From IMG/VR virus record IMGVR_UViG_3300031784_000003: 64,000 nucleotides of DNA; one strand, written 5' to 3'. A model generated the notes under the pieces. It was given only the letters and a program-made list of their open reading frames with translations, searched no databases and was not told the DNA's origin. Below, piece by piece: positions 22,521 to 49,709 of the stretch; position 1 is the stretch's first letter; every line of letters begins with the position of its first letter. Both the position numbers and the translations under genes were made by a program. Origin of the DNA: a virus. Its lineage: Duplodnaviria; Caudoviricetes.

Positions 22521-22522
22521 AA

Positions 22523-24614: not shown

Positions 24615-24651
24615 ATTAATTCTTTTACTATAAATATCTTATAATAAAATT

Positions 24652-25394: not shown

Positions 25395-26171
25395 TTATAC
25401 TTCATATGTTATTTCTCTATCTTCAGTAAAAAAATATTCTTTTTTGGCTTTGTTAACCCAAAATTTACTTTCTAAAACATCAATACTATTTTTATATTCC
25501 ACAAAAAGAGATCCTTCTCTATTGTTAGTGTGTTTATATCCTAATCTAGGGATTACCATAACTGGAACTGAAAAATATGTCATTCTTAATAAGAATTCAT
25601 ATGTGAAAGTTAATTTTACGTTATTTTTTAACCCACCATATTCTTCATAAACTTCTTTTTTGACTACCATACCATCAAAATTAAAGTTCTGAACTCTTTG
25701 TAAAACATTATTATCTAAAAAACCACTTTCTTCAGTAAAATCTTTTGCCCACACACTTTCGTTAGTAAAAGAAATAAATCTACCGTTTTCATCAGTTTCA
25801 TAAATTATTGGTAAAAACACACCAACTTCAGAATAATGTTTAATATATTCTTTAGCACTCTTAATCCAAATAGGTGAAATCTCATCGTCATATTCTACAA
25901 ACGTAAAATAGTCTGATGTAGACTGTTTAACCCCATAATTGACTTGCGATTGAAATCCATAGTCCTTAGTTTCATTTTTTACAATTTTTACTAAATCTTT
26001 AATATCACCAAAATCATAATTGTTTAAATAATCATCAAGATCAGTATCTTCTGATACTACAAATAAAACTTCATTCGGTTTTTCTTTTTGATTTTTGATA
26101 CTTAAAATACATGAATCTAAATATGTTTTTTCTAATTTATGTACTGGTACTATTACTGAAATACTACTCAT
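25395..26171 (-). CDS. Glycosyltransferase, GT2 (GT-A)
   Basis: ISVIVPVH..., FTFVEYDD (DxD-like), YEFLLRM. Confidence 0.8.
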   Translation of the reverse strand: MSSISVIVPVHKLEKTYLDSCILSIKNQKEKPNEVLFVVSEDTDLDDYLNNYDFGDIKDLVKIVKNETKDYGFQSQVNYGVKQSTSDYFTFVEYDDEISPIWIKSAKEYIKHYSEVGVFLPIIYETDENGRFISFTNESVWAKDFTEESGFLDNNVLQRVQNFNFDGMVVKKEVYEEYGGLKNNVKLTFTYEFLLRMTYFSVPVMVIPRLGYKHTNNREGSLFVEYKNSIDVLESKFWVNKAKKEYFFTEDREITYEV

Positions 26172-26215
26172 ATTTTTATATTTTTTTATTTTGTTATTAT
26201 TTAATTTTCTATTTT

Positions 26216-27334
26216 TTATATAGTAGTTTGTTCTTTTACTTCAAATTGTTGAAGAGAACTTTCTAATTCAACTAACCTACGTTTAAATATTTTATCGTAA
26301 ACTTCTGTTACGGCATTATTAGATTCTTCTTCACTATATTTATTTACCCATTCACTCATACCTGTCATAATATTTTGTGGTAATGCGTCTTCTAAGAATA
26401 ATCCAACCATAGTTGCAATAATGTCAGGAATTGAGTTTAAATTTGCAGTCCAAATACCATTATCATTTAAATTAAGATTACCATTTTCATCTACGTTACC
26501 CATCCATTCTGGTACCATTCTAGGTATCTTACCGATTACTGGTGTGTTTACTTTCATAGATTCTAATGGGAATGTACCAAAACTTGATAATTCATCTACC
26601 CATACACTTAAAAATGATTTTGATAGTTCATTTGCAAATGTCTTTCTAGGTAATCCAGACAAATCTCTAAATGTTACAAATCTATAATGTGGGTATTTCT
26701 GATAGAAAATTTTAACTATTTTTAATAACTCTCTCTTATCTCTAGCCACCATAGATACTGTAGGGATTTTAGGTTTCTTCTCATCTTCAAAGTAAGAAGG
26801 GATACCGATAGGAATGATATCAGTTGTCAAACCTCTAAATAATGTGTTAACATAATTACTTAAATTTTGATTCGTAGTGATTACATCTCTAATTCCGAAT
26901 TGTTCCCAACCTTCACCAATCTCCATCATTTCAAAAATATACTCATACGATTGTAAAAATACTATTCTCTTACATGGGAAATTTACAGTCTGTTTCATAA
27001 TACTAGCAAATGCTTCAGGAATAACTACAAAATCTGATGCACTTACCTGTAATTTTTGAGACTCGATAGAGACGTGAGGTAAATTAGCGTATTCTTCACC
27101 TAACCATTCAGCAATACCAATACCGTGTTCATCTTCTCTTAATTTATAGTCATTTTTATCATGTAAAATTTGTGCGTTATAACCTAACTCTCTCAACTTT
27201 TTTACATGTTCGTAGATTGTGGCAACACCTGCCGTTGGGTTACCCTTTGTGTCGATAGTAAAAAAATAAATACCAAAATCCTTGTTATTAATTTTTTCAA
27301 TAGATTCTTTGATTTTTTCTAATTGTTCACTCAT
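26216..27334 (-). CDS. Glycosyltransferase, GT-B (GT4-like)
   Basis: AGVATIYEHVKKLRELGYNA N-lobe; SSFGTFPLESMKVNTPVIG resembles the E-x7-E donor-binding motif. Confidence 0.65.
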   Translation of the reverse strand: MSEQLEKIKESIEKINNKDFGIYFFTIDTKGNPTAGVATIYEHVKKLRELGYNAQILHDKNDYKLREDEHGIGIAEWLGEEYANLPHVSIESQKLQVSASDFVVIPEAFASIMKQTVNFPCKRIVFLQSYEYIFEMMEIGEGWEQFGIRDVITTNQNLSNYVNTLFRGLTTDIIPIGIPSYFEDEKKPKIPTVSMVARDKRELLKIVKIFYQKYPHYRFVTFRDLSGLPRKTFANELSKSFLSVWVDELSSFGTFPLESMKVNTPVIGKIPRMVPEWMGNVDENGNLNLNDNGIWTANLNSIPDIIATMVGLFLEDALPQNIMTGMSEWVNKYSEEESNNAVTEVYDKIFKRRLVELESSLQQFEVKEQTTI

Positions 27335-27355
27335 ACTTATTTATTTATTTTATTA

Positions 27356-27679
27356 TTATAATTCTTTTATAATACCTTTCATTAGTAAAGTATTATAAGC
27401 AATTTTAAATGGGATAGAAGTTTTATTTAACGCCACTGATCCCATTTTATCATCAATTTCTTCATTATGGTTTAATATTGTCGCAATCATTTCTCTAAAC
27501 ATCTCATATTTAGTGATGTCTATTTGTATTGTAGATTCATCTATTTCCTCTATACCAGTTGCGTCTAATAAAGTATCCTGATTTATTTTAGATTCTATTT
27601 TTACTACATCAGATAATCTATCGATATCAAAGTATAGTTCTTTTCCTCCAATTTGTAGAAGTAAATTATCGTTTTCCAT
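27356..27679 (-). CDS. Hypothetical protein
   Basis: 107-aa ORF; variant motif ATATTTAC at 27720-27727 (minus strand). Confidence 0.75.
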   Translation of the reverse strand: MENDNLLLQIGGKELYFDIDRLSDVVKIESKINQDTLLDATGIEEIDESTIQIDITKYEMFREMIATILNHNEEIDDKMGSVALNKTSIPFKIAYNTLLMKGIIKEL

Positions 27680-27726
27680 ATTTATTTTTTTTACTAATTT
27701 ATTGATTTTTTTTAGATAAGTAAATA

Positions 27727-28335
27727 TTAAAGGTCTTCAAATTCTATTGTTTGTGTACCCAATATTTTTTCTAATAATTTTTTATCATCAACGATCTCTT
27801 TTAAATCAATAACAGTATAATCAGATTGACAATCCTTATTATAATGATTTATAATTTTTATCGATACTTTACCACTAGGTTTACTTTCTAATACCTCTGG
27901 ATCTGCAGTTACCATTACGTCAACAAAATCCCACTTTTTAGAATTATCTCTAACAAAAATAATATTATTAATTTTTGCAGATAATTTAGACAAGAAAAAA
28001 AGTGTTGCAGGTTTACTATTATTTAATTCTTTACTAATTAGAATGGGGGTGTGACCCATATCCTCAATTAAATTGTGTAGTTGGTTTAGGTGTTCGACAG
28101 AATTTAATTTTGTCTCACCCGCGTGCCCAAATATTTCTAAAGAAGAATCTACATATAAGAATTTATTTAATTCTTCTGTTCCACCAGTAAAAACAAAATG
28201 TTCTAACAAATTTAAGGAACTGATGTCTCTTTCTGGCGTTTCCTCGTCTTCGGAGGGATGATATCTATCATAAACCGACTCAAATTTAGTGATAAAATCT
28301 CTAATTACTCCATTAATACCTATCCCTATTTTCAT
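27727..28335 (-). CDS. HAD-fold 5'(3')-nucleotidase-like protein with a degenerate motif I
   Basis: MKIGIGINGVIRD where active HAD enzymes have IGIDxDGV; overall size and pattern fit phage deoxyribonucleotidase-like HADs. Confidence 0.55.
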   Translation of the reverse strand: MKIGIGINGVIRDFITKFESVYDRYHPSEDEETPERDISSLNLLEHFVFTGGTEELNKFLYVDSSLEIFGHAGETKLNSVEHLNQLHNLIEDMGHTPILISKELNNSKPATLFFLSKLSAKINNIIFVRDNSKKWDFVDVMVTADPEVLESKPSGKVSIKIINHYNKDCQSDYTVIDLKEIVDDKKLLEKILGTQTIEFEDL

Positions 28336-28480
28336 CACTTTCTACTTTATAAATTGTTAGTAACTGTTCGGGACTTAATTTTTTTTTAAATGAAAAAAAT
28401 TCTATTGCAGATTCTAAACTTTCTTGGTTAGTTATGGTAATAACTTCCCCTTTTTTTGTTTTTAAAATATATTTACTCAT
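28313..28480 (-). CDS. Small protein missed by the ORF track (55 aa)
   Basis: Translated by hand: MSKYILKTKKGEVITITNQESLESAIEFFSFKKKLSPEQLLTIYKVESDENRDRY; fills the gap between phoH and the HAD gene. Confidence 0.6.
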   Translation of the reverse strand: MSKYILKTKKGEVITITNQESLESAIEFFSFKKKLSPEQLLTIYKVESDENRDRY

Positions 28481-28485
28481 TATAA

Positions 28486-29238
28486 TTAATTTTCTAATTC
28501 CTCAAAAATATCCTCAATCAATTTTATTATTGGGTTTCTAACCACGTCTTCAGGATTTCTTAATTCTACACAACCAAAACTTGGTTTGTCTTTAAATTTC
28601 TCTAAAACAACTTCTAAGGAACTATCTTTTTTATTCCTCAAATCCTTTTGTTTTACATCTCCCATAATAACCATTTTAGAATTATCACCAATCCTTGTCA
28701 TAAGAGTTCTGATATTTTCTAATGTAATGTTTTGTGCCTCATCTATTAATATTATTGAATTGTCTATAGTCCTACCTCTAGCAAATGCGATAGGGACAAT
28801 CTCTATCACCCCTAACTCTATTAATTTTTCCATCCTACTTTTACCGATAAGTTTTCTGATATTATCTGTAAAAGATTCCATAATCGGAGCCATTTTTTCT
28901 TTTAAATCACCAGGTAAATGTCCGATCTCTTCATTTTTTAATGGGGTTATAGATTTTACTAAAACTATTCTTTTGTATTTTTCCTCCATCGTAACCAATC
29001 TTATTGCTTCTGCGCATGATAAGAATGTTTTACCAGAACCAGGTAAACCACTACAAATAGTTATTTCGTTATTTTTTATAGACTCCACCAATTTTTTTTG
29101 ATTCTCAGTCTTACATTTAACATTAATAGTAATAGTTTTAAACACTTTCTCTTCCTCAACATTGTTTCGGTTTAGAAATGCCTCCATTTCCAAAATTTCT
29201 TCTTCGGAAAGTTGTTTGTTTTTTCTTCTTCTTGTCAT
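28486..29238 (-). CDS. phoH: PhoH-like ATPase
   Basis: GLPGSGKT, IGHLPGDLKEKM, ARGRTIDNS, LIDEAQN, MGDVKQ. Confidence 0.93.
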   Translation of the reverse strand: MTRRRKNKQLSEEEILEMEAFLNRNNVEEEKVFKTITINVKCKTENQKKLVESIKNNEITICSGLPGSGKTFLSCAEAIRLVTMEEKYKRIVLVKSITPLKNEEIGHLPGDLKEKMAPIMESFTDNIRKLIGKSRMEKLIELGVIEIVPIAFARGRTIDNSIILIDEAQNITLENIRTLMTRIGDNSKMVIMGDVKQKDLRNKKDSSLEVVLEKFKDKPSFGCVELRNPEDVVRNPIIKLIEDIFEELEN

Positions 29239-29274
29239 ATTATAATTTTACTATTATTTTCTAAAAATTAAAGT

Positions 29275-30189
29275 TTATTTTCTAATATTAGAATAATTTA
29301 ATTCAAACCATTCAATAGTATCTTTCAACCCCTCATAAAGTGGGGTAAATTTAAAATTAGGTAAATATTTTTTTATTTTACTATTGTCTGATGGTTTTCT
29401 AAACTGACCATCGGGTTTAGTTTTATCGAAAATTACCTTACCATTAAAATTCATCAATTCAACTACCATATCAACTAATTCTTTAATAGATATTTCCTCA
29501 GATGTAGATAAGATTATAGGTTCATCTTCATTATAATTTTCTAAAACCCATTCAGTTAATTCTGCAACATCTTTACTATTAATAAATTCTCTTAAAGGTT
29601 TACCTGATCCCCATATAGTAAAATCAGTTTTATATTCTCTAGCAATATAACATTTATGTATTAGTGAGGGTATTACATGCCCATTTTCTATATTGTAATT
29701 ATCGTTAATACCATATATATTTGTAGGAATAACAGATTTATAATTTAACCCATATTGTTCTCTATACGATCTTATTTGAATGTCTGCCATTCTTTTTGCG
29801 TATGCATAAGGGTAATTTGAAAAGTGGGGTTCTCCTAAATGAATTTTATTTTCAGTTAGTGGGTAGTCTACATCGTTAGGGAATATACATGTTGATAAAA
29901 ATGATACTAAATTTTTAACACCAAACATTCTAGCAGATTCTATTATATTAGTATTCATCATAATATTATCGTAGAAAAATTCTCCTTTATATTTCATATT
30001 TCCCCCAACACCACCAACTTTACCTGCACAATGTATAATACCGTCAAAATTATTATTTCCGATTAGTGTGTTGACTTCTGAAGTAATTCTAATGTCAACA
30101 TCTTTAGACGTTGGTTTAAAGTATTTATCCCCTTTAAATTCTGACCCAACTAAACCACTACCTCCAGTGACTAAAATTTTTTTATTCAT
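29275..30189 (-). CDS. fcl: GDP-L-fucose synthase
   Basis: TGGSGLVG, HCAGKVGG, LSTCIFP, YAYAKR, PTNIYGINDNY, WGSGKPLREF, KPDGQFRK. Confidence 0.92.
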   Translation of the reverse strand: MNKKILVTGGSGLVGSEFKGDKYFKPTSKDVDIRITSEVNTLIGNNNFDGIIHCAGKVGGVGGNMKYKGEFFYDNIMMNTNIIESARMFGVKNLVSFLSTCIFPNDVDYPLTENKIHLGEPHFSNYPYAYAKRMADIQIRSYREQYGLNYKSVIPTNIYGINDNYNIENGHVIPSLIHKCYIAREYKTDFTIWGSGKPLREFINSKDVAELTEWVLENYNEDEPIILSTSEEISIKELVDMVVELMNFNGKVIFDKTKPDGQFRKPSDNSKIKKYLPNFKFTPLYEGLKDTIEWFELNYSNIRK

Positions 30190-31183
30190 TTATATATTCT
30201 TTTTCAACACTATAATATTCCAACCAATAATTTATCATATCATCTAACATTGTTTTAAAGGTGTATTTTGGTTTCCACCCTAATTCTAACCTTATTTTAG
30301 ATGAATCTCCTTTTAAATCATGTAACTCTTCAGGTCTAAAATGTTTATCATCTATAACTACATATTTTTTAAAGTCTAAATCTAATTTATTAAATGTATA
30401 TTCACATAAATCTTTAACAGAATATGAGACACCTGTTGAACACACATAATCGTCTGGTTTATCTGATTGTAACATTAACCACATTGCCTCAACATAGTCT
30501 TTTGCGTGACCCCAATCCCTAGTTGCATCAAGATTACCTAAATGTAAATTTTTTTGTAACCCTAATTTAATTCTAACTGCAGCCTTAACAACTTTATTGG
30601 TAACAAAATTTGTACCTCTACGAGGTGACTCATGATTAAACAAAATACCGTTCCATATTTTCATATCATATGAATTTCTATAGTTTCTACATATGTTATA
30701 TGAGAACACTTTTGCGCACCCATATGGTGAAACAGGGTTCATAGGTGTAGTTTCTCTCTGATAACCATCTACATCTATTGAATTACCAAACATTTCAGAT
30801 GATGATGCCTGATATATTTTAGAGTGTGGTGAAACCATTCTAACCGATTCCAATAGATTTAATGTCCCTAAACCTGTTGCGTTAGCAGTATAGATAGGTT
30901 GATCGAAAGAAATTCTCACGTGTGATTGTGCAGCTAAGTTATAAATTTCATCTGGTTGCACTTTTTGTAATACACTTATTAACGAAGCCATATCAGTTAA
31001 ATCCGCATATTCTAATTTAATTTTATCTGTCGACCTTAAATGTTCAATTCTTGTAGATTGTGTTTCCGAAACAGAATTTCTTTTTATTGTTCCCCATACC
31101 TCATATCCTTTTTCTAATAAAAATTCCGCTAAATATGAACCGTCTTGTCCGTTAATACCTGTAATTAATGCTTTTTTTTTCAT
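30182..31183 (-). CDS. gmd: GDP-mannose 4,6-dehydratase
   Basis: ALITGINGQDGSYLAEFLL, YNLAAQSHV, QASSSEMFG, PVSPYGCAK, NHESPRRG.NFVT, RDWGHAKDYV. Confidence 0.96.
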   Translation of the reverse strand: MKKKALITGINGQDGSYLAEFLLEKGYEVWGTIKRNSVSETQSTRIEHLRSTDKIKLEYADLTDMASLISVLQKVQPDEIYNLAAQSHVRISFDQPIYTANATGLGTLNLLESVRMVSPHSKIYQASSSEMFGNSIDVDGYQRETTPMNPVSPYGCAKVFSYNICRNYRNSYDMKIWNGILFNHESPRRGTNFVTNKVVKAAVRIKLGLQKNLHLGNLDATRDWGHAKDYVEAMWLMLQSDKPDDYVCSTGVSYSVKDLCEYTFNKLDLDFKKYVVIDDKHFRPEELHDLKGDSSKIRLELGWKPKYTFKTMLDDMINYWLEYYSVEKEYINE

Positions 31184-31230
31184 ATAATTTTATTTTTAAT
31201 AATATATACGAATTTAATTTATAGTAAATA

Positions 31231-32142
31231 TTATTTTATAATCTTCAATAAAAATTCTTCTAATAAATTAATACCTAAATCATCAATATTTTTTATTATA
31301 GGTTGTCGTAACATTTCATTTAATAAAAAATTATTGGAGTCGATTTCTTTTATTGCCTCAATAAACAAATCGTCATCATTATAATTATGATAATTTAGAA
31401 ATGAATTTTTATTAAAAACCTCATCTATTTTTTCATTACCATAATATATCGGTACAGTATTAGACAAAAACGACTCAATAATTTTTTCATCAATTAATCC
31501 TTCAATATTATATGTCTGATGTTCCTTATAAAAATGATTTTGCATTGCAAAAGAAAACTTAAAATTTTTTATAGAATTTATTTTATGTAGTGATCCGTAA
31601 GGTATAGGGAATGTTTCTTTAGTATCTACAGTTTGATATTCATTTAATTTGTTAAAAATAACATTTCTTTTGTGGGGTGTATTATTAGTATGTAAAAAAA
31701 TACAAAATTTATCTTTTTTATTTATTTCTCTATATTTAGTTAAATAATCAAAAGAGGGTATTATTTTAGTTACATTTATATGATGATATAACCATATGAG
31801 GAAAACAGGCATATAAAAATTTTTATCGATATTAGATTTATATGAGGAAATCATATAATCACAATCACTTATAGATAAAAAATTTCTTTCATTACGTGGG
31901 TATATTTCTAAATTATTATAATGACCTGGCTCACTATTTACATATATTTTTAAACAGTTTTTATAATGTATGTGTGGGTTATCCATCCCTAAAGAATAGA
32001 ATAATATGTCAGGATTTTGACTATCCATTACTACGTCAAAATTTTTTTTTAATAACCATAAAAATATGTTATCATTAGATGAACCAGGTATAGACACATC
32101 ATATGCCTCCCAGTTTAAAAAATGTACTTTTATTTTTTTCAT
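31231..32142 (-). CDS. GT10-like (alpha-1,3/4-fucosyltransferase family) glycosyltransferase
   Basis: KFSFAMQN...LIDEKIIESFLSNTVPIYYG. Confidence 0.7.
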   Translation of the reverse strand: MKKIKVHFLNWEAYDVSIPGSSNDNIFLWLLKKNFDVVMDSQNPDILFYSLGMDNPHIHYKNCLKIYVNSEPGHYNNLEIYPRNERNFLSISDCDYMISSYKSNIDKNFYMPVFLIWLYHHINVTKIIPSFDYLTKYREINKKDKFCIFLHTNNTPHKRNVIFNKLNEYQTVDTKETFPIPYGSLHKINSIKNFKFSFAMQNHFYKEHQTYNIEGLIDEKIIESFLSNTVPIYYGNEKIDEVFNKNSFLNYHNYNDDDLFIEAIKEIDSNNFLLNEMLRQPIIKNIDDLGINLLEEFLLKIIK

Positions 32143-32147
32143 TTTAA

Positions 32148-32813
32148 TTATTTTTTTTCAGTTAAATATTTTTTTATTACCATATAATCTTTTTCTAAAT
32201 CAGGTGACAAAGCGGCAGAATGGTAACTAATACCTTCTGAATTAGTATATGTTGTAGAATGCAACGCACTATTAGCTGACACAAAATTAGAAACTAAAAC
32301 ATTTTCTTCGTATTTAGATATATTTAAATTAATTGCGACTCCCCACAACCACCCATCTGTTTGAGAATAATCCGAAATTCTACCTGTTAAATCAAACCAT
32401 TTTTTAGGTATTATTGGGATTAATGAAAAATGACTATCCCAATTAGATTCTAAAAGGTTAACCTTTACGTAATTAAATTCATTTTCATATTTTTTTAAAT
32501 AAATGTCCCAATCTTTAGATAATATTTTACAATCATCTGCTAAACACCACAATAAATTACCATTTGACATTTCAGATAATTTATTAAAATAGAGATGTAA
32601 ATTTTTATAAAATAACCTTTCAAAAAATACGACTTTAATATTGTTTTTATTTAATATAAAAGTATTTAAAAAATTTATAGTTTCACTATCATCATTATCT
32701 ACACCTAATATAATTTCGTAATTTGCTTCATCACTAGCATTATCAATAATTGAATTTAATGTTATTTCTAATTCATTTATTTTAGATCTCGTTGGAAATA
32801 TAATACTTATCAT
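32148..32813 (-). CDS. GT2-like glycosyltransferase
   Basis: ISIIFPTR..., EIILGVDNDD, LWCLADD. Confidence 0.6.
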   Translation of the reverse strand: MISIIFPTRSKINELEITLNSIIDNASDEANYEIILGVDNDDSETINFLNTFILNKNNIKVVFFERLFYKNLHLYFNKLSEMSNGNLLWCLADDCKILSKDWDIYLKKYENEFNYVKVNLLESNWDSHFSLIPIIPKKWFDLTGRISDYSQTDGWLWGVAINLNISKYEENVLVSNFVSANSALHSTTYTNSEGISYHSAALSPDLEKDYMVIKKYLTEKK

Positions 32814-33670
32814 AATTTAATTTTTTTTAAAATGTAGTTTGACACACCTTCCGTTGAAATATTTTTATTAAAATAGTTCAAATTAAGAATATCAAATTCA
32901 TTTAATTTTTCTATTTTTAAAAGGTTGTGGATTAAATTATCATTTAATTCTGACCAATTATCTAAAAATATTGCGGGTGAGTTTTCGTAAAACCAATTAC
33001 CATAAATAGAATTTTTAGGATATGTAGTTATCACAATACAGTTATTTTCAAATGATTCAAAATATCTAAATGATTCTGGGACTACTGCACCTAAAGGTAC
33101 AATTGATATTTTGGAGTTTGACATTAATTCATAATATTCCTCTAATTTAAATCCTTTAGCAAACCCATCTGTAATATTTACAATAGATTTAAAATTATTT
33201 TTTACTTTATTTAATTGATTTATACACTCTACCCTATTAGGTGACCATTGGGCAGAATAAAAAATATCGTATTCTCTTTCCCTCAACAGTCGTTTTGGTT
33301 TTTCCATATTATCATAACACCAATCAGAGTTACCAAAATAACCCCCAAATCCACATGAAAAACCACATGGTACTGCAAATATTTTTTTATTGTCATGAAG
33401 ATTACTATTACTGTATGTTCTGAATATTAAAAAAAATTCCTCAGTAAATGGTGGAATAATTCCTTTTTCATCAGAAAGTAGAATTAAAATATTTTTTTTA
33501 TTTTTTTTAATACAATTATATAATTGTTGTTTTTCTACTTCATCATTTGATCTAGAAATTATAAAATGATAATTATCATCTAATTCATTTTTTAAATGAT
33601 CTAAAACCCTTAAAAAGTAAGGTGCGTCAGCAACTTCTGGTTTTACCATTGGGGCTATAGTTATTTCCAT
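32810..33670 (-). CDS. Exostosin (GT47)-like glycosyltransferase
   Basis: YYELMSNSKISIVPLGAVVPESFRYFESFENNCIVI matches the exostosin C-terminal pattern. Confidence 0.5.
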   Translation of the reverse strand: MEITIAPMVKPEVADAPYFLRVLDHLKNELDDNYHFIISRSNDEVEKQQLYNCIKKNKKNILILLSDEKGIIPPFTEEFFLIFRTYSNSNLHDNKKIFAVPCGFSCGFGGYFGNSDWCYDNMEKPKRLLREREYDIFYSAQWSPNRVECINQLNKVKNNFKSIVNITDGFAKGFKLEEYYELMSNSKISIVPLGAVVPESFRYFESFENNCIVITTYPKNSIYGNWFYENSPAIFLDNWSELNDNLIHNLLKIEKLNEFDILNLNYFNKNISTEGVSNYILKKIKL

Positions 33671-33671
33671 A

Positions 33672-36801: not shown

Positions 36802-36804
36802 AAT

Positions 36805-37725: not shown

Positions 37726-37740
37726 AATCTTTTATTTTTT

Positions 37741-42076: not shown

Positions 42077-42088
42077 TTTTTTCTATAA

Positions 42089-42700
42089 TCACCCTTTAAT
42101 ATAAAACGCATCACCCCAAGTTACGCCCTCCCAAGTTGTTTCAACTCTACTGAACCCATAAGAATTTAAAAATTGATCTAATTCTTCTACTTTAGCACAC
42201 CCTTTATATAATTCAGCTCTATTCACTTCAGTCATTACATAATCAACAGAATTTAAAAATTCTGAACCACCCTTAAATACTTCTAATTCATAACCCTGAA
42301 CGTCAATATTAATAAAATTATAGTTAATATTTTCGTCTATAAAATTGTCTAATTTTGTAATCTTAACTTTTTCTTTACCATTAAATTGAATGGTTGGATG
42401 TTGGACTAAATGGTAATCAGGTTCTAAAACAGAACTAGATTGCCCTTCATTAATTGTTTCAGTAAACATTTCTACCTCACCTTCTATATTACCCAACGCG
42501 GTATTAACTAATATTGCCTTATCCCCAACATTTTCTTTTAGTCTATCAAATGTTTTTTTTAAAGGTTCAAAAAACATAACGTTTTTAATACCTAATCTTT
42601 CGTAGGTTTGAAATTCTTGACCAATATGTGCCCCAATATGTAAAACACCTTTAATTTTTAAATTGTATTTTTCTTTTAAACTATCTAAATTTAATAACAT
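42089..42700 (-). CDS. FkbM-family methyltransferase
   Basis: VLHIGAHIGQE, FFEP, NIDVQGYELEVFKG, TEVN, WGDAFY. Confidence 0.88.
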   Translation of the reverse strand: MLLNLDSLKEKYNLKIKGVLHIGAHIGQEFQTYERLGIKNVMFFEPLKKTFDRLKENVGDKAILVNTALGNIEGEVEMFTETINEGQSSSVLEPDYHLVQHPTIQFNGKEKVKITKLDNFIDENINYNFINIDVQGYELEVFKGGSEFLNSVDYVMTEVNRAELYKGCAKVEELDQFLNSYGFSRVETTWEGVTWGDAFYIKG

Positions 42701-42766
42701 AAGAATTATTTTTTTTTATTATATAATATAAAATTATAGTAAAATTTTTTTAAAAAGTAAATGAAT

Positions 42767-43582
42767 TTATTTTAAAAATCCATTATCATAAACAACATTT
42801 ATTTTTTTCCATTTTGGTTCATAGACATCTGTATAATCTTTATGACCTTTTGGTCCAAACCAAACAGAAGGTACACATACCTTTTTGTTTTTATTTTTAT
42901 TTAGGTATGATCCCCACCAAGAAAAAGATGAATTAGACATAATATTATGATTACATAAACTAATTGCCCATAAATCTTCATAATCATTTAAATCGGTAAC
43001 AATAGTAGATTTATCATAATTTAAATTTTTTTCTGCCCATTCTTTATCATTTGTAAAAATAAATAAGTGAGAATATTTACCAATAGATTTTAGGGACTTA
43101 TCTATATAACTTTTTTCTATTACTGGTAAAATATCAGACACAGTTAAATAATCCCCTCTTCTAATATGAATAGATACTGAATTTTTTTCGAATATTAGTG
43201 GGTATAAAGTCATTAATTTTTGTTTAAACTCTTCAGTTGGTAAAAATAAGTTTTTTATATTCTCACTATAATTTTTAAAATTTTTACTACTTTGGTAATA
43301 ACCATAAAACATTATTGAGGTGTCATAACCATATTTTAAATCGTTATAATTCCAAGATATTTCGTCAACTCTTTTTTGTGGATTAATATTATCTTTAAAG
43401 TCAATATTTCTAAAGATATTATCTACATAGGTAATAGTTTGATTACCTTCCATAGGAAGAAATGAGAAAGGTTTAAAATAGACAGGTGTGTTATGAATAT
43501 ACCCTTCTGTTTTGGCTTTGGCAATTTGAAACATTTGATTACCCAAACCACCCATTAAATGTGTTGTTATAAATTTTTCCAT
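42767..43582 (-). CDS. GT11 alpha-1,2-fucosyltransferase-like
   Basis: MGGLGNQMFQ, SIHIRRGDY, CNHNIMSNSSFSWWGSYL; start moved to the ATG at 43582 next to the upstream stop. Confidence 0.9.
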   Translation of the reverse strand: MEKFITTHLMGGLGNQMFQIAKAKTEGYIHNTPVYFKPFSFLPMEGNQTITYVDNIFRNIDFKDNINPQKRVDEISWNYNDLKYGYDTSIMFYGYYQSSKNFKNYSENIKNLFLPTEEFKQKLMTLYPLIFEKNSVSIHIRRGDYLTVSDILPVIEKSYIDKSLKSIGKYSHLFIFTNDKEWAEKNLNYDKSTIVTDLNDYEDLWAISLCNHNIMSNSSFSWWGSYLNKNKNKKVCVPSVWFGPKGHKDYTDVYEPKWKKINVVYDNGFLK

Positions 43583-43583
43583 A

Positions 43584-44198
43584 TTAAAATAACCACTTAT
43601 AGTTAACATTTTTATTTTGTATATCACTAAAACTTTCTCTTTGTAACGCAATACTAGGATTAAACCCATAACAATTATAAGATTTTTGTATATCGGCATA
43701 ATATACGTCTATCGGTTTTCCTCTTTTACTTATTAAATCCAATATTAAGTCATAAATAGTATTGTTTATAACCACACAATGTATACCATATGTTTCATTT
43801 AATTTTATTATTTTTTCATTTAAAAAATTAATTTGTTTACCCATATGTTTATTGTGGTTTCCTCCAAAATATATCATATCCCAATCGGAAGGTAATAATG
43901 ACATATATTCATCTAAATTTTTTATTTCTTCAGTAAATTCTATATCATCTTCTAATATTAATATATTTTTATAACCTTTTTCCTTAGCCTCATTAATAAT
44001 GTTAATGTGGGTAGTTAAGATACCTAATTCTCCATTATTTATTGTAGTATTATTAATTAATGTGTTACCATCTACGGCAGAATAACGAGTAACACTATCA
44101 GACAATCCCCACTTACCTAATTCTTCTAGTGTTTCATTCCACCTATCTTCTCTGCGATCAAGATTTATACAATAAATTTTATCAAAATAATTTTTCAT
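43584..44198 (-). CDS. GT25 glycosyltransferase
   Basis: YCINLDRREDR, GELGILTTH, ILILEDD, MIYFGG, PIDVYY. Confidence 0.85.
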   Translation of the reverse strand: MKNYFDKIYCINLDRREDRWNETLEELGKWGLSDSVTRYSAVDGNTLINNTTINNGELGILTTHINIINEAKEKGYKNILILEDDIEFTEEIKNLDEYMSLLPSDWDMIYFGGNHNKHMGKQINFLNEKIIKLNETYGIHCVVINNTIYDLILDLISKRGKPIDVYYADIQKSYNCYGFNPSIALQRESFSDIQNKNVNYKWLF

Positions 44199-44201
44199 AA
44201 T

Positions 44202-45062
44202 TTAAATATAAGTTTTTAAAATTTCAGATTTATATTCTATAATTTGATTTAACACTCCATCACCTAATTTTTTTATATCCTCATATAACTCTTCTAATAT
44301 TAAGGAATCATTGTTAGATTGTATTTCGTGATATAAATGTAATAATTCGTTTTTAGGGTTGTCTACAGAATGAATCTTTTCTAAGGTTTCAACTTTATTC
44401 CAAAAAAATATATCTTCTGGTGACCAACCATAAAATAATTCAGGATCGTAACCACCAACATTAAAGAATAATTCTTTATTCACAAATATTGATCCACCAG
44501 GTGCACCATAATCACCTTCCCTAACTTCCTCCAAATTAATATCGTTAATATTTATTTCTTTATTTAATAAATTTTGTGATTGTTGTTCATTTAAATAAAG
44601 TACTCTACGATTAAAAAATGTTTGTAAACATTCTGATTTTTTAGATTCTTTATTCTCCATTAAATTTAAGAAAAAATTATCATAAACTAAACAGTCTAAA
44701 TCATGAAACAAAAAATATTTAGAATTTTTATTTAATAATGCACCAATATTATGACATAAACATTTATTGAATTTGTTTTCTACACTATTGATCCAATAAT
44801 ACCCTACCCCATAACTCTTACAAATTTCATAATATTCTCTATTTGTTGAATGTTCAACAATTGTAACATTAATTTTTAGATTTGTTTTTTCTATTGCAGA
44901 TTTTAAATGTGATAAAGATGCGTCAACAAAATTAATCCTACCTCTAACTGGTATTATTACACTAATATCAAACTTTTTAAATGGTTTTTTCTTTTTAATT
45001 TCTTTGTAAAAAACATCAAACCTATTAATATCTATTATATTTTTAATATCTGAAAAAATCAT
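44202..45062 (-). CDS. GT2/GT7-like glycosyltransferase
   Basis: ISVIIPVRGR, FLFHDLD, GGSIFVNKELFFNVGGYD..FYGWSPED. Confidence 0.72.
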   Translation of the reverse strand: MIFSDIKNIIDINRFDVFYKEIKKKKPFKKFDISVIIPVRGRINFVDASLSHLKSAIEKTNLKINVTIVEHSTNREYYEICKSYGVGYYWINSVENKFNKCLCHNIGALLNKNSKYFLFHDLDCLVYDNFFLNLMENKESKKSECLQTFFNRRVLYLNEQQSQNLLNKEININDINLEEVREGDYGAPGGSIFVNKELFFNVGGYDPELFYGWSPEDIFFWNKVETLEKIHSVDNPKNELLHLYHEIQSNNDSLILEELYEDIKKLGDGVLNQIIEYKSEILKTYI

Positions 45063-45694
45063 ATTTCAATAACTCTCCTATTATCTTCAACTTTATTTTG
45101 AATATCACTATAACTAACTCTTTGTAATGCAATACTTGGATAAAAAGAATAGACATTTAATTCTTTTTGTAATTCACTATAGTAAATGTCAACAGGTTTC
45201 TTACAACCTTTAATTAAGGTTAAACACTTATCATAACAAGTGTCTCTAAAAACAATACAATGAGTAGTAAACGTCTTACTACATTTAATTATATTATCAT
45301 TTATTTTATTTATTTTTTCTCCTTCATGTAGATTGTGGTTTCCACCAAAATAAAGAATGTCCCAATCACTTGGGACTATCGACATATATTCATCTAATTT
45401 TTTTATCTCTTCAGTAAATTCTATATCGTCTTCTATTATTAATATATTTTTATATTTTTTAGTTTTGGCTAATTGTAATAAATTTATATGGGTTTTTAGT
45501 AAACCCAATTCACCATTATTAACCCTAAATATATTATTATCATAACTTAATTTACTACCATCAACACCCTTAAATCTATTAACTCCGTCAAATAAATTCC
45601 ATTTTTTAAGTTCTGATACAGTTTCATTCCACCTATCTTTCCTTCTATCTAAATTAATACAAAAAACCCTATCAAAATATTTTTTTAAACTCAT
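45059..45694 (-). CDS. GT25 glycosyltransferase (paralogue of 43584-44198)
   Basis: FCINLDRRKDR, GELGLLKTH, ILIIEDD, ILYFGG, PVDIYY. Confidence 0.85.
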   Translation of the reverse strand: MSLKKYFDRVFCINLDRRKDRWNETVSELKKWNLFDGVNRFKGVDGSKLSYDNNIFRVNNGELGLLKTHINLLQLAKTKKYKNILIIEDDIEFTEEIKKLDEYMSIVPSDWDILYFGGNHNLHEGEKINKINDNIIKCSKTFTTHCIVFRDTCYDKCLTLIKGCKKPVDIYYSELQKELNVYSFYPSIALQRVSYSDIQNKVEDNRRVIEI

Positions 45695-47094
45695 ATCATA
45701 ATTTTATTATCTATTACGTCAAAATTTTTAGTTATTATTCTTTGATATAACTCCATATGGTTTTTATTTGCTTCAGTGGATACTGTCCCATCATTTTCAT
45801 GATGAAAATAGACAAATAATGGTTTTGGTATTCTTTTACCAACATAACCCTCTTTCATCATTCTAATCCACATATCATAGTCTTCCCAACCAATCATCTC
45901 TTCATCATAACCGTTAACTTTTTCAAACGATTCTCTATGGAACATAGAACAATTAACTATAAATGGGCCTTGTAATAATCTTTCTTTACTCCATTCAGGT
46001 CTTTTTTCTACACCTTGCGTTTGCCCAACATGATGTGTATCACAATACACTGGACTGATTTCTTTATTTTTTGTTAATATATTTACACAAGATCTAATAT
46101 AACCATCTAAAATCATATCATCAGAGTCTAATGGTAATATATATTCACCTTTAGAATGTCTAAACGCCTCATTTCTTGCAGATGAAGGTCCACCATTTTC
46201 TTTATAAACAACCTTAATTTTTTCTACATTTTCTAATTGTTTAAGTTTCGTCTTAACAAACTCATCTGTAGATCCATCATCCACTAAAATTATCTCAAAA
46301 TTGGTGTAATCTTGGTTAAATACAGAATTTAATGTTTGATTAATCCTATTACCATAATTGTAAATCGGCATCAAAATAGATACTAGTGGTTCTTTATCTT
46401 TTACTTTTTTAATGTTATATGTATACGGAATAATTTTAGGTAAACTTTCTTTATATTTCCCCACAAATTGAATTCTATTATCTTCCCATTGTTGGTTTGT
46501 TTGTCCGATAGATAAATGAGTTACCGCTATATCTGAAATAACACCAATATTAACACCGTTTAAAAAATTATTAAAACAAAAATCTATCTCATAAAAATGA
46601 AATCCTTTGAAATTTTCGTCAAAATCTTTAACAATATTATTTTTATTAACCGCAAAAAACAAACCGTCAACTATAATAGTATCTTCTATTTTATTACCAA
46701 ATGATTCATTATATTTTGATAACCATTTTCTACCTTCATGTTGGTGGTAGACTTGTCCAATAACTTCAGTCATACCATAATCCCACCATCTACCTGAAGA
46801 CGGCATATATTTAGTTCCTGCCTTACCAATAATACCATAATTAGGATTTCTTTTGAAGTGATTCAATATCTTATTACCCCAATTTTTAGTTTCCAAAATT
46901 ATGTCATCATGACAAAAAACCACAATATCATTTGTGGTTTCTTTTAAGGCTTTATTATAAATTTCTGTTAGAGAATATTCACCATTGTTTATATATTGAA
47001 TAACCTCCATATCTTTGTAGATACCAGAGGTTACCATTATATGTTCTTTATGTTTTGGATTATCTTCTCTAGTTGAGAATACTACACTAATCAT
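45691..47094 (-). CDS. Two-domain glycosyltransferase (StrF-like GT-A plus GT2)
   Basis: N-domain VVFCHDD...VDGLFFAV; C-domain VSILMPIYN, IILVDDGSTD, ARN, PLDSDD, WEDYDMW. Confidence 0.88.
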   Translation of the reverse strand: MISVVFSTREDNPKHKEHIMVTSGIYKDMEVIQYINNGEYSLTEIYNKALKETTNDIVVFCHDDIILETKNWGNKILNHFKRNPNYGIIGKAGTKYMPSSGRWWDYGMTEVIGQVYHQHEGRKWLSKYNESFGNKIEDTIIVDGLFFAVNKNNIVKDFDENFKGFHFYEIDFCFNNFLNGVNIGVISDIAVTHLSIGQTNQQWEDNRIQFVGKYKESLPKIIPYTYNIKKVKDKEPLVSILMPIYNYGNRINQTLNSVFNQDYTNFEIILVDDGSTDEFVKTKLKQLENVEKIKVVYKENGGPSSARNEAFRHSKGEYILPLDSDDMILDGYIRSCVNILTKNKEISPVYCDTHHVGQTQGVEKRPEWSKERLLQGPFIVNCSMFHRESFEKVNGYDEEMIGWEDYDMWIRMMKEGYVGKRIPKPLFVYFHHENDGTVSTEANKNHMELYQRIITKNFDVIDNKIMI

Positions 47095-47230
47095 TTTTTA
47101 AACTATTATAATATTTTCTTATTTCATTACCTAATGTTTGATCATTAGGAAATTTTAAAATCATTTCTAAAATATGAAAAGAATCAATCTTTTTTGATAA
47201 TTCATATTTTTTAGGATCAATGTTTACCAC
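47087..47230 (-). CDS. Possible small protein missed by the track (47 aa, GTG start)
   Basis: Translated by hand: MVNIDPKKYELSKKIDSFHILEMILKFPNDQTLGNEIRKYYNSLKND; fills the gap and overlaps both neighbours. Confidence 0.35.
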   Translation of the reverse strand: MVNIDPKKYELSKKIDSFHILEMILKFPNDQTLGNEIRKYYNSLKND

Positions 47231-47792
47231 TTGATCCGAAACCTGTGTTACCTCTTTCTGTTTCATTTAATTTATCTACTTTGATTAAATCTGATATACC
47301 TTGACCTACTACATTCATTATCACACCTTGTGCAATTCTTTCTCCTGGCTCTATAGTATATTCTTCGTTACTTAAATTAATTACTATAATACCTACATCA
47401 CCTCTATACCCTTCGTCTACAGTACCAGGTGTGTTTAATACTGAAATACCGTGCTTCAATGCCATACCACTTCTAGGTCTAACTTGTAATTCAGTATTAG
47501 ACGATAATTCAAACTTTAAACCAGTAGGGATTAATTTTCTTTCTAATGGTTTTAATGTTATAGGTTTATCTATAAATGCTCTTAAATCAAAACCACTATC
47601 CCCTACTTTAGCATATTCAGGATCAGGATTATTTGAACTATTAGTGAATTTAGTTTTTATCTTAAAATAATCAATATTAACATCTAATAAATTCTTACTT
47701 TCGACAGATTCTATATGTGACATTAATGATTGTAATTCTTCTAATTGTCTAAGTTCTTCTTCAAAAGAAGAGTCTAAATCGTTTACTTCCAT
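47217..47792 (-). CDS. dut: Trimeric dUTPase
   Basis: GDSGFDL, QVRPRSG, NTPGTVDEGYRG, RIAQ, RGNTGFGSSG. Confidence 0.95.
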   Translation of the reverse strand: MEVNDLDSSFEEELRQLEELQSLMSHIESVESKNLLDVNIDYFKIKTKFTNSSNNPDPEYAKVGDSGFDLRAFIDKPITLKPLERKLIPTGLKFELSSNTELQVRPRSGMALKHGISVLNTPGTVDEGYRGDVGIIVINLSNEEYTIEPGERIAQGVIMNVVGQGISDLIKVDKLNETERGNTGFGSSGKH

Positions 47793-48355
47793 TATTTATT
47801 TTTTTTACATTCTATTATTGATAATTCATTTGCCTGTTTTAAAAGTGTAGATAATGTTGAACCATACCATTTAGATTGTTTATCATCTTCCGATTTATCA
47901 AAATTAATAATTGACTGATATTCTTCTTCAGTTAAACTAACACCATAAGTTAATGCATAATATGCGGATCTTTCACCTACTCTCATAGAAATAAGATCCT
48001 CATTAAAGTCATACATTTTACCTGCATTTTTTCTATGCCATTCAGATTCACAAAATTTAAATAAGAATGTCTTACCTATTTGGTGTAAAAAACATACCTT
48101 AATTATTGATTTTTTGTCCACTCTTAAATTTTCAGGTAAACTTTCATTTAATATTACCGCATATTTTGTAACTTTCAAAATATGATCAATCAAACCACCT
48201 GGAAAGGCATTATACATACTTTCCATATTTGATGCTGGTGCAGTAAACAAATCTTCTCCTAAAAATTCTAATAAAGAATGAGTAAAAGTTTCATTGGACT
48301 GGCAAGTCTTCTCAAACTTTTCTCTATTCTTAATAATTTTTTCTTTTAGTTCCAT
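47792..48355 (-). CDS. HD-domain-like phosphohydrolase with an HD-to-HQ change
   Basis: AFPGGLIDHILKV ... CFLHQIGK, where YhaM-like HD proteins have GGL.EH ... LHDIGK. Confidence 0.65.
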   Translation of the reverse strand: MELKEKIIKNREKFEKTCQSNETFTHSLLEFLGEDLFTAPASNMESMYNAFPGGLIDHILKVTKYAVILNESLPENLRVDKKSIIKVCFLHQIGKTFLFKFCESEWHRKNAGKMYDFNEDLISMRVGERSAYYALTYGVSLTEEEYQSIINFDKSEDDKQSKWYGSTLSTLLKQANELSIIECKKNK

Positions 48356-48382
48356 ATTCTTTTTTTTATAAGAATAATGATT

Positions 48383-49639
48383 TTATTTTACTAAATCAAA
48401 TACTAAATCTTTTTTTTCTTGAACTAATTTACTATAAAGATTTTTTCTTTCTCCACAAACAGTTTTCATATCATATTTACCATTTACGGTATTATATAAA
48501 TTTTCACCTAGTTTAGTAATTAATTCAGGGTTTTCTACTAGTCTTTTTAAATGGCTATACCATAATTTATGATTTTTTACAGTAGGGATTAAAAACCCAT
48601 TACCGTTTTCGTTTATCGTACCACCCTTCTCAAAAGAATCAACAACGTCTATCTGATACGAACCAAAGTCTTGTGCGACTATAGCCTTTTTATGGAAACC
48701 TGCTTCAATCACTTTAAGCTGAGATTTAACTTTATTAAACGTATTTTCTTTAAGTGGTGCTAATGAGATATCAAATAAATTATAATTTGATGCATAAGAT
48801 GTAATTGGTTTAGTCCATACTCTTCTGTAAGGTTCATTTGCAACGTTTTCATATTCTTTATTTTCAAAAGATAACAAAAATTCTTTATATTCTTCACTAA
48901 CAATTTTATAATCATCAGTAAATATTCTTTCATATTCGTACCATACGGATTCTTTTGGTTTAATAGGGCGTTGTTTTTGTTCACCAGTTTTTTGATCAAT
49001 CATTGTGATTGTACCTCTTAAATCAAAACCACATAATACAAATTGTACTTTATCAATTAATCCGTCATTTTTGAATTTACTAACCATCCCCTTTAAAATT
49101 TCTAAATCTTTTAAGTGAGAAGATCCACCTAACCATCCAATTCTAATTCTATCACTTTTTTCAGAATTATTTTGGTATTGTTTTTCAGATGGATTAATTG
49201 CGTTTGGAATCACAAAAACATTTTTATTAAATTTACTTATTTCATCCGCAAATATTTTTGTTGTGGTAGTCACATTTCTAGAAACTTTAACATTATTTAA
49301 AATTTTCTTATCCAACTCATGAGATTTAATTATTTGCCAAGCAGGATGATCAGGACCTGGAGACCAATGATCATCTATATCCATAATAGTCGCAATACCT
49401 AATTTATCACATCTATCTAACAATTCACCTAAATATTCATAATCACCTAAAGTTCTATGGTAATGTATTAAATCATATTTTTTTAAATATTCATCGTTAT
49501 GTAACTCAGGTTCATAATCAATATCGACATGAAAATCGTTAGGGAAATATTCTTCTAATTTGATGTGGGGTATTGTCGATCTATAATAAGAAACCCCTGT
49601 TCTGTCACTCGGAACAACTAATACTTTAATTTTACTCAT
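48383..49639 (-). CDS. GT-B (GT4-like) glycosyltransferase
   Basis: GVSYYRSTIPH, MDIDDHW, VIPNAI, IGWLGGSSHLKDL, DISLAPL..NTFNKVKSQLKVIEAG. Confidence 0.8.
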   Translation of the reverse strand: MSKIKVLVVPSDRTGVSYYRSTIPHIKLEEYFPNDFHVDIDYEPELHNDEYLKKYDLIHYHRTLGDYEYLGELLDRCDKLGIATIMDIDDHWSPGPDHPAWQIIKSHELDKKILNNVKVSRNVTTTTKIFADEISKFNKNVFVIPNAINPSEKQYQNNSEKSDRIRIGWLGGSSHLKDLEILKGMVSKFKNDGLIDKVQFVLCGFDLRGTITMIDQKTGEQKQRPIKPKESVWYEYERIFTDDYKIVSEEYKEFLLSFENKEYENVANEPYRRVWTKPITSYASNYNLFDISLAPLKENTFNKVKSQLKVIEAGFHKKAIVAQDFGSYQIDVVDSFEKGGTINENGNGFLIPTVKNHKLWYSHLKRLVENPELITKLGENLYNTVNGKYDMKTVCGERKNLYSKLVQEKKDLVFDLVK

Positions 49640-49709
49640 AAATAATTTTTTATTTAATAATAAAAAGAAAAATTATTTTTCTAAATATTATGAGAAAATT
49701 AATTTAAAA

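Follow-up and report, generated by a model that had tools for sequence, protein, structure and literature searches.

The window analysed here, a stretch of 64,000 nucleotides of viral DNA (IMG/VR record IMGVR_UViG_3300031784_000003; Duplodnaviria, Caudoviricetes), contains at positions 25395-49639 a block of 16 glycosyltransferase (GT) genes, gmd, fcl, two more genes for short-chain dehydrogenases/reductases (SDRs), a split transketolase and two methyltransferases. Within this block, a hypervariable island of ~18 kb lies between the genes for dUTPase and PhoH. The island occupies a fixed genome position in relatives of this phage, and its gene set differs in each relative; each phage therefore probably makes its own glycan. 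The gene content supports a soluble, self-contained route to GDP-L-fucose, and the locus probably makes a second modified sugar. We propose, as a reading that we consider evenly poised, that the block encodes a two-layer, wholly soluble glycan assembly line with a conserved cytoplasmic phage acceptor, most likely a virion protein. GT-rich variable islands were already described in cyanophages and pelagimyophages. New here are the conserved frame around the island, the swapping of domains in its first gene (the anchor gene) and the cassette borders, which are undescribed in the papers on cyanophage P-SSM2, the pelagimyophages and the moraphages as judged by term searches only.

A fixed frame around a hypervariable island

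Relatives were found with the 372-aa GT-B enzyme of the block as probe and then through the whole records of relatives; gene presence was counted over 35 related loci. The sequence-only reading of this DNA, made before our analysis, had named synteny across related large phages as a check, and every relative examined keeps one order of frame genes: GT-B (418 aa), HD-domain protein, dUTPase, island, PhoH, a 203-aa and a 107-aa protein, GT-B (372 aa), GT2 and sigma factor. These frame genes are 72-93% identical in close relatives. PhoH, always beside the island, is 85-92% identical in close and 39-40% in distant relatives, and the frame is intact even in distant relatives with PhoH ~39% and the capsid protein ~62% identical. 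Genes were assigned by Pfam, NCBIfam, PHROGs, ESM Atlas and PDB sequence searches, and all genes of the block lie on the minus strand. The left frame consists of the core 418-aa GT-B gene (48383..49639; phrog_7162, E=1.7e-39; 63-86% identical in relatives), the HD-domain gene (47792..48355; weak Pfam HD match; 67-92% in relatives) and the dUTPase gene (47217..47792; PF00692, E=1.5e-24), which forms the left island border and adjoins the anchor gene in relatives. On the right, PhoH (28486..29238; PF02562, E=5e-62) borders the island and is followed by the 203-aa and 107-aa genes (27356..28338; no family match, syntenic in relatives), the core 372-aa GT-B gene (26216..27334; 51-88% in relatives) and a core 258-aa GT2 gene (25395..26171; PF00535, E=7e-16), which is present in 35 of 35 related loci and abuts the sigma gene. 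Both GT-B proteins belong to viral GT1/GT4-like clades (by Atlas clusters for 48383). The Atlas model of the 372-aa enzyme has a TM score of 0.69-0.76 to bacterial GT4, and its PDB match was weak (8xsg, a putative glycosyltransferase; E=8.5e-5).

The island itself measures ~5 kb in L081 and L082, 6-7 kb in L086, L100 and L112, 9-13 kb in G004, G003, G001, G007 and G009, and ~18-19 kb in the window and G002. When 218 island open reading frames (ORFs) from ~24 loci were clustered at 50% identity, they fell into 132 groups, including 91 singletons, and the window genes at 31231-41273 have no orthologue in the clustered relatives. Islands of relatives encode SDRs, DegT aminotransferases, hexapeptide acyltransferases, FkbM, TylF and other methyltransferases, and GT2, GT10, GT11 and GT-B enzymes. 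Their distal end often carries gmd (18 of the 35 loci) plus fcl (16 of the 35). In one relative (L121), the anchor, GT25, GT11, FkbM, gmd and fcl genes are 70-87% identical to those of the window and the centre is different. Four GT genes or domains are conserved throughout the clade like virion genes, namely the two GT-B enzymes, one GT2 and the N-terminal domain of the anchor.

The anchor is the first gene of the island (45691..47094) and is predicted by Pfam to encode an N-terminal GT-A domain (residues 1 to ~220; PF13712) joined to a GT2 domain. The N-terminal ~220 residues are conserved in all relatives, and their alignment contains the invariant motifs HDD, VDGLFF and FHFYD. After L218-P219 the C-terminal part changes to one of at least three unrelated types (GT2, another GT-A or GT-B), and protein lengths range from 467 to 811 aa across relatives. 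Judged from these alignments, the anchor is a conserved GT-A domain fused to swappable GT domains. An AlphaFold2 (AF2) model of the protein (pLDDT 78) likewise has two GT-A domains. Fold searches with this model place the N-terminal domain near majastridin (2nxv, Z 20.4) and the whole protein near the two-domain polymerase K4CP (Z 21.7), and gave no clue to the acceptor. The N-terminal domain was found in more than 2000 protein clusters of public metagenomes, many of them on 250-360-kb contigs, and in none of 50,697 GenBank phage records.

We suggest that the island is exchanged as cassettes, via recombination that would take place inside semi-conserved end genes: the anchor, GT25, GT11 and FkbM genes on one side, and gmd and fcl on the other. 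Two contigs of 11.3 and 11.9 kb, from two other studies, cover 30816-42082 at 98.0% and 30954-42818 at 99.6%, and both terminate within gmd and near the FkbM gene. In sequencing run X10 the island flanks are nearly absent at >=95% identity, and in run X4 they are present at lower depth. Numerous apparent joints in the aligned reads had sides of only 20-24 nt and were treated as low-complexity noise. In locus L132, from a distant relative, gmd (1605-2597) is 88% identical to gmd of L092 and L094 and the frame genes are ~35-45% identical to those of the window, a pattern that points to recent transfer of island genes, either from one phage lineage to another or out of a common host pool.

The window-specific centre finds its best match in the 106-kb contig CAZCJR010000003.1 (G011:C3, also L135 and L215-L218), from a metagenome-assembled genome (MAG) labelled Cellvibrionaceae. 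Based on its low GC (23-25%), its terminase (24% identical to that of the window) and its DNA polymerase beside a homing endonuclease, an SbcC-like protein and an NAD ligase, this contig is, by gene content, a separate large phage mis-binned as a bacterium. It encodes 11 homologues of window island genes at 36-67% identity. Among these homologues is a colinear cassette of the N- and C-terminal parts of the split transketolase (TK-N, TK-C), an SDR, a methyltransferase and another SDR, at 62-67%. This five-gene cassette, with an fcl-like SDR, recurs at 45-60% in bacterial MAGs of many phyla, and it may specify an uncharacterised sugar. We abandoned the use of TK-N to infer a donor or host; because its nearest cellular homologues are scattered over many phyla (45-60%) and the best match is carried by another phage, no donor or host can be named.

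Gene content and predicted glycan pathway

The family and structure searches reproduced the enzyme list of the sequence-only reading (16 GTs, gmd, fcl, SDRs, transketolase and methyltransferases), and the single strand and short overlaps that it had noted are seen across the block, where many genes overlap by 4-20 nt. The ~24-kb span that it described as a glycan pathway does not consist of glycan genes alone, as genes for PhoH, dUTPase, the HD protein and the unknown proteins of 203 and 107 aa are interspersed with them. It had also counted two exostosin-like genes. Both encode GTs, but the one at 35219 belongs to family GT114 and the one at 32810 is its weak paralogue.

Next to the anchor lie a GT25-like gene (45059..45694; PF01755, E=3.7e-7), a GT2-like gene (44202..45062; PF10111, E=1.4e-9) and a second GT25-like gene (43584..44198; PF01755, E=2e-8), which is 71% identical to its L121 orthologue. 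The two GT25-like genes are paralogues in the same 50% cluster on either side of the GT2 gene; the interval 43584-45694 resembles a local duplication, and L121 has a single copy. They are followed by a GT11 gene of the alpha-1,2-fucosyltransferase family (PF01531, E=2.5e-24), the start of which we revised to give 42767..43582. The ATG at 43582 is 2 nt past the GT25 stop and gives a protein of 271 aa, the length of the L121 orthologue; it is most likely the start, and the hydrophobic N-terminus of the longer GT11 ORF is therefore an artefact. A gene for an FkbM-family methyltransferase (42089..42700; PF05050, E=3e-19; TIGR01444) and a GT10-like gene (41258..42076; PF00852, E=2e-9) precede the five-gene cassette (36805..41273; Pfam and NCBIfam). 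Its genes start at 40542 (TK-N), 39667 (TK-C), 38666 (SDR), 37741 (methyltransferase-like) and 36805 (SDR), and the label of 37741 as a class-I S-adenosylmethionine (SAM) methyltransferase-like protein is an Atlas lead alone. The remainder of the island comprises a GT32-like gene with the DXD sugar-binding region (36010..36801; PF04488, E=1e-14), the GT114-like GT-B gene (35219..36019), a GT10-like gene (34321..35229; PF00852, E=1e-6), a GT25 gene (33672..34331; PF01755, E=1.5e-14), the distant paralogue of the GT114-like gene (32810..33670; RXYLT1_C, E=0.009; BLASTP to 35219, E=5e-6; 58% identical to a homologue in G011:C3), a GT2-like gene (32148..32813; PF00535, E=1.6e-6) and a third GT10-like gene (31231..32142; PF00852, E=3e-8). 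The semi-conserved right end consists of gmd, for GDP-mannose 4,6-dehydratase (30182..31183; PF16363, E=2e-124; TIGR01472, 408 bits), and fcl, for a GDP-L-fucose synthase-like SDR (29275..30189; NF047922, E=3e-70, under the curated cut-off). PDB sequence searches with 48383, 32148 and 44202 returned nothing.

The GT114-like gene links this locus to the chloroviruses. Residues 66-258 of its product align with residues 80-277 of the A075L structures 8avq, 8q8i and 8asa (phmmer, E=3.4e-40, 141 bits). A075L is the founding member of GT114 and xylosylates the fucose of the PBCV-1 capsid N-glycan, beta to O4 (PMC11571054). In that enzyme, Arg158 and Arg208 bind the donor phosphate (PMC11571054), and equivalents of these two and of Asn202 are conserved in the phage protein (chain index +2) as the Arg of 'sqri', the Asn of 'GNGID' and the Arg of 'THR'. 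The catalytic base of A075L, Asp73, lies N-terminal of the aligned stretch, and an N-terminal Asn-Ser-Asp motif of the phage protein, outside the alignment, could correspond to it. On this homology the product of 35219 is assigned to CAZy family GT114. GT114-like genes occur in just two of 50,697 GenBank phage records, both from uncultured phages.

Together these genes suggest how the assembly line may operate. The first, clade-conserved layer would comprise the two GT-B enzymes, the GT2 and the N-terminal GT-A domain of the anchor, and the second layer would be the hypervariable island between dUTPase and PhoH. Gmd and Fcl are predicted to convert host GDP-mannose to GDP-L-fucose, and the transketolase-SDR-methyltransferase-SDR cassette may supply a second sugar that is two-carbon-branched or extended, and methylated. 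The sequence-only reading had proposed a complex, branched, methylated oligosaccharide; the gene set could indeed assemble one that is fucose-rich and methylated. Its builders would be ~12 island GTs, including three GT10-like, one GT11, three GT25, one GT32 and one GT114 enzyme with its paralogue, which together may give the product its branches. The conserved GTs would prime a conserved acceptor, which the island GTs would then elaborate, so that each phage lineage would display its own glycan type. The acceptor, possibly the capsid, a decoration protein or the fibres, would receive its glycan step by step, either ahead of particle assembly or in the course of it, as is the case in chloroviruses and mycobacteriophages.

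Virion proteins, host envelope or DNA as the acceptor

Several features favour an acceptor in the cytoplasm. None of the 218 island ORFs from the window and its relatives has two or more segments resembling transmembrane (TM) helices, and none encodes a membrane-associated component. Genes for Wzx (PF01943), the priming transferase (PF02397) and Wzy/ligase (PF04932) were found in none of five relatives' records (WecA, PF00953, was not searched), and Gtr-like genes are likewise lacking there. As controls, PF01943 and PF04932 were found in 9-13 of 14 control genomes, and the PF02397 search also worked in controls. These genome-wide absences hold for the five relatives' records, two of which are rated 100% complete. 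The locus therefore resembles virion-glycosylation systems in having soluble virus-encoded GTs without a lipid-linked export pathway. A virion acceptor is favoured because the proposed priming enzymes are conserved like structural genes, because an export function is never carried, because one GT is an A075L homologue, and because a promoter-like core is common to the glycan block and the virion genes. We rate virion proteins as the target slightly below an even chance. More tentatively, the conserved GTs may prime virion proteins in the cytoplasm while the swapped cassette sets a strain-specific, fucose-rich, methylated coat in a serotype-like system; the coat glycan may include an unusual branched or extended sugar derived from transketolase. 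Bacteriophages would then have their own counterpart of chlorovirus capsid glycosylation, with a population diversity like that of O-antigens. A glycan on the virion would mean that particles come in glycan 'serotypes', which would bear on adsorption, grazing, stability and evasion of defences.

The promoter-like core was identified upstream of both gene sets. The sequence-only reading had pointed to ATATTTA-core motifs upstream of the first GT gene, gmd and the 107-aa gene, and all three sites are present in sense orientation as ATATTTAC or ATATTTAG, at -40/-41 nt. These 8-mers are unenriched upstream of genes (2 of 19 and 2 of 17 copies, respectively). All three sites contain the 9-mer TAATATTTA, 41-42 nt before the ATG: at 49682..49690 on the minus strand, 42 nt upstream of the 418-aa GT gene, and, also on the minus strand, at 31225-31233 (gmd) and 27721-27729 (107-aa gene). 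Of the 12 copies of TAATATTTA in the window, nine are in sense and precede a start codon by no more than 60 nt (binomial p=3.5e-12). Because of this placement and the constant spacing, the TAATATTTA sites are probably real promoter-type elements related to those of virion genes. The canonical virion motif, ATATTTAT, has 19 of its 33 copies in sense within 60 nt upstream of 19 start codons (p=5e-21), all of them outside the glycan block, and lies 4-25 nt before the ATG of most virion-module genes (for example at 2038-2045, 8004-8011, 9175-9182, 11005-11012, 12985-12992, 55475-55482 and 60780-60787, and on the minus strand at 20565-20572, 24630-24637 and 52113-52120). The two motifs have a common core but differ in the last base and in spacing. 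The late expression proposed for the glycan block is thus weakly supported. PhoH, dUTPase and the sigma gene are transcribed in the same direction as the glycan genes.

Other points weigh against a late-made virion glycan. The proposed acceptor is an inference, and the predicted sugars and linkages derive from family membership alone. GT114 also has bacterial members (PMC11571054). None of the 29 block genes is preceded by ATATTTAT at the 4-25-nt spacing, and no RNA run containing the locus was present among the sequencing runs searched. The nucleotide-metabolism genes in the block (dUTPase, HD and PhoH) are not late genes in T4. Glycolipids of the lipooligosaccharide (LOS) type are likewise built by soluble GTs and flipped by host MsbA, with no dedicated export genes, and GT25, GT10 and GT11 are typical LOS and O-antigen families.

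These last considerations lead to the main alternative, remodelling of the host envelope, which we regard as rather unlikely. Here the soluble GTs would act on lipid-linked host glycans at the cytoplasmic face of the inner membrane, such as LOS or lipopolysaccharide (LPS) core, O-unit or a Bacteroidota general O-glycan precursor, and host flippases would export the product. The benefit could be exclusion of competing phages, or prevention of readsorption of progeny to debris, and the hypervariability of the island would come from tracking the diversity of host glycans and the receptor specificity of competitors. GT32 can be added to the three GT families typical of LOS or O-antigen synthesis, the hypervariability of the island is like that of bacterial O-antigen loci, and host-envelope remodelling has also been put forward for cyanophage P-SSM2 (PMC1079782) and for the islands of pelagimyophages (PMC7029224). 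Since LOS-type synthesis needs no dedicated export genes, their lack does not exclude host glycans as substrates. The lack of any membrane-associated component among the island ORFs, and of Gtr-like, priming (phosphoglycosyltransferase, PGT), Wzx and Wzy/ligase genes in relatives, nevertheless counts against this alternative, as does the promoter-like core common to virion genes. A constant phage acceptor also fits better with four GT genes or domains conserved like virion genes, and the nearest characterised homologue of one GT acts on a capsid glycan. A glycan placed on the host would mean that a virulent jumbo phage re-types the surface of its host.

Comparison with characterised systems bears on the same choice. 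Like the block, chlorovirus PBCV-1 has soluble GTs, GDP-fucose synthesis (GMD and GMER), multi-domain GTs and methyltransferases, and its A075L has a direct homologue in the block (PMC11571054, PMC7826918). Homologues of its A064R and A111/114R did not turn up here, though no search aimed at them was made. It differs in having an algal rather than a bacterial host and a conserved glycan core, where the island here is swapped between relatives. Virion O-glycosylation was described in mycobacteriophages Che8, Corndog and Myrna (Freeman et al. 2023, cited via PMC12619734). As cited there, soluble phage GTs near structural genes are proposed to decorate capsid and tail proteins, a likeness to the present locus, but those systems have one to few GTs and, in that account, no sugar-nucleotide pathways. 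The glycans they add sit, by the same account, on C-terminal tails of capsid and tail-tube proteins, and such tails were not identified here. Bacterial O-antigen, capsule and LOS clusters resemble the block in combining sugar-nucleotide genes and GTs in one operon and in their conserved flanks, hypervariable centre and recombination in flanking genes. They differ from it in that neither the island nor the relatives' records contain a priming phosphoglycosyltransferase, flippase, polymerase, ligase or ABC transporter.

GT-rich variable regions have been noted in aquatic myophages for 20 years, and their target was never tested. Cyanophage P-SSM2 has two 'LPS' clusters with 24 genes in total (PMC1079782), and pelagimyophages have a GT-rich host-recognition cluster (HRC) between VrlC and gp14, with tail-fibre genes (PMC7029224). 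Like these aquatic T4-like myoviruses, the phage studied here has blocks of epimerase, dehydratase and GT genes between core modules, with content that is non-syntenic among relatives: we found a T4-type core (gp23, gp20, TerL and gp55) and a non-syntenic GT-rich region between core genes. The present locus differs from both in its fixed dUTPase...PhoH frame, its anchor with swappable GT domains, its gmd/fcl end and its 16 GT genes, and it belongs to a different lineage, with a capsid protein only ~40% identical to the nearest GenBank phage matches. Unlike the pelagimyophage HRC, the island lies between dUTPase and PhoH, and the fibre-like genes (55497-62459) are 6 kb off on the other strand. 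Moraphages, which live in freshwater, have genomes of 200-307 kb, predicted hosts among the Flavobacteriia and four core GT orthogroups (PMC12619734). They carry PhoH, dUTPase, a sigma factor and a T4-type tail core, and their gp23-type capsid tree includes Rhodothermus RM378 (PMC12619734). Their core set and the four conserved GT genes or domains match those found here in a comparison by gene names only. Their reported hallmark DnaK (HSP70) was found in just one of the five relatives' records, so this clade is a candidate member of the moraphages. As judged by term searches only, the moraphage paper (PMC12619734) describes no variable island, gmd/fcl or anchor architecture. The present locus offers a testable architecture, with a fixed frame, a conserved domain joined to swappable ones, recombination borders and one cassette on different backbones.

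A second alternative, that the GTs glycosylate hydroxymethylated bases of phage DNA in T-even style and shield it from host nucleases, appears very improbable. Such systems were surveyed by Pyle et al. 2024 (cited via PMC12619734). A dUTPase and an HD phosphohydrolase flank the island, the specificity of the core GT-B enzymes is unassigned, and two of the five relatives' records contain a thymidylate-synthase (TS)-family gene, a match that does not distinguish synthase from hydroxymethylase. Against this, Pfam scans of the block proteins found no T4 alpha- or beta-glucosyltransferase family, and the record of the closest relative (78% complete) lacks a TS-family gene. To our knowledge, fucosyltransferase-type enzymes, methyltransferases and more than 12 GTs also far exceed what any known DNA glycan requires. 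Finally, it is scarcely credible that a bacterial GT block was joined to or bracketed by phage contigs. In favour of this, the genes resemble host polysaccharide genes, the GC of the block is slightly lower than in its flanks (0.24-0.26 versus 0.28-0.33), and IMG/VR labels two relatives as 'provirus'. Against it, all relatives examined have an island bracketed by the same frame genes, independent samples yielded identical contigs that span the junctions, members of the anchor N-domain family are found on 250-360-kb contigs, and G011:C3, the best 'bacterial' match, proved to be phage DNA.

Source of the DNA and neighbouring genes

The GT block is genuine phage DNA, and a host misjoin, which the sequence-only reading had named as a possible flaw, is contradicted because the same genes and junctions recur in independent assemblies. 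Contigs with proteins and junctions identical to those of the window were found in independent JGI, ENA and NCBI assemblies; some span the 418-aa GT, HD, dUTPase, anchor, GT25 and GT2 genes, and others the central GT run. The GT10-like protein encoded at 31231..32142 has an identical copy in 8 contigs from independent samples, and 20 runs belonging to 12 studies (lake, freshwater, aquaculture and others) contain near-identical copies of positions 30000-39999. The two relatives labelled 'provirus' (G009 and G010, behind loci L054 and L101) have phage frame genes on both sides of the island, so the host-like GT island may have triggered the call.

The source of the DNA is an uncultured jumbo phage of fresh water, distantly T4-like and at least 273 kb in size. 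The window (GC ~27%) encodes TerL, portal, a gp23-like major capsid protein and a gp55-like sigma factor, as found by PHROG- and Pfam-type searches, and a 272,978-bp contig carries its own anchor protein. The major capsid protein is ~40% identical at most to GenBank phage proteins, the best matches being those of an uncultured 484-kb phage, Flavobacterium phage immuto, a Microcystis phage and Rhodothermus RM378. More than 595 IMG/VR relatives were found with the capsid protein at 60-92% identity, and the relatives' genomes are ~295-330 kb by CheckV estimates.

The block had been described as running into a sigma factor and baseplate genes. The sigma gene (24652..25386, minus strand) does have matches, but they are weak (PHROG late sigma factor, phrog_234, E=3.6e-5; Sigma70_r2, E=2.9e-4), and the genes at 19146-24229, taken for baseplate genes, match nothing in Pfam, PHROG or PDB; the PDB sequence search with gene 22523 returned nothing, and the 701-aa gene that neighbours the block on the right gave no match as a probe for relatives. 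No Shine-Dalgarno sequence is visible at the genes preceded by ATATTTAT. If ATATTTAT is a -10-like element of a gp55-type sigma factor, their mRNAs would be leaderless or have very short leaders.

Scans of the window for other signals gave little. Sigma-70-type promoter matches were fewer than in shuffled sequences, a terminator scan found no minus-strand terminator inside the island, and the Bacteroidota-type promoter (TTTG-N-TAnnTTTG) is unenriched in the window and absent upstream of island genes. A Bacteroidota-type pattern, TTTG-N20-TATATTTG, lies at 49710-49741 (plus strand) in the 347-nt gap that precedes the 418-aa GT gene, but on the strand opposite to that gene; the count of this pattern in the window is not above chance. 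Exact copies of TTTACTATAA occur upstream of gmd (31219-31228, minus strand), the FkbM gene (42734-42743, minus strand) and gene 14358 (14316-14325, plus strand), and the overall count of TTTACTATAA in the window is not above chance.

Some genes outside the block encode proteins that may be surface-exposed or may carry glycan. The gene at 18318-19154 (plus strand), directly after the major capsid gene (16493-18232), is 31-61% identical among relatives, compared to 78-92% for the capsid gene, and its product may be a decoration protein. A 712-aa protein encoded at 58404-60542 (plus strand) contains ~10 DUF285/BspA-type repeats (Pfam, 1082 bits). It is adjoined by Ser/Thr/Gly-rich, fibre-like proteins encoded at 55497-58397 (25% Ser+Thr) and 60795-62459, and this repeat protein and its two neighbours are candidate adhesins and possible glycan acceptors.

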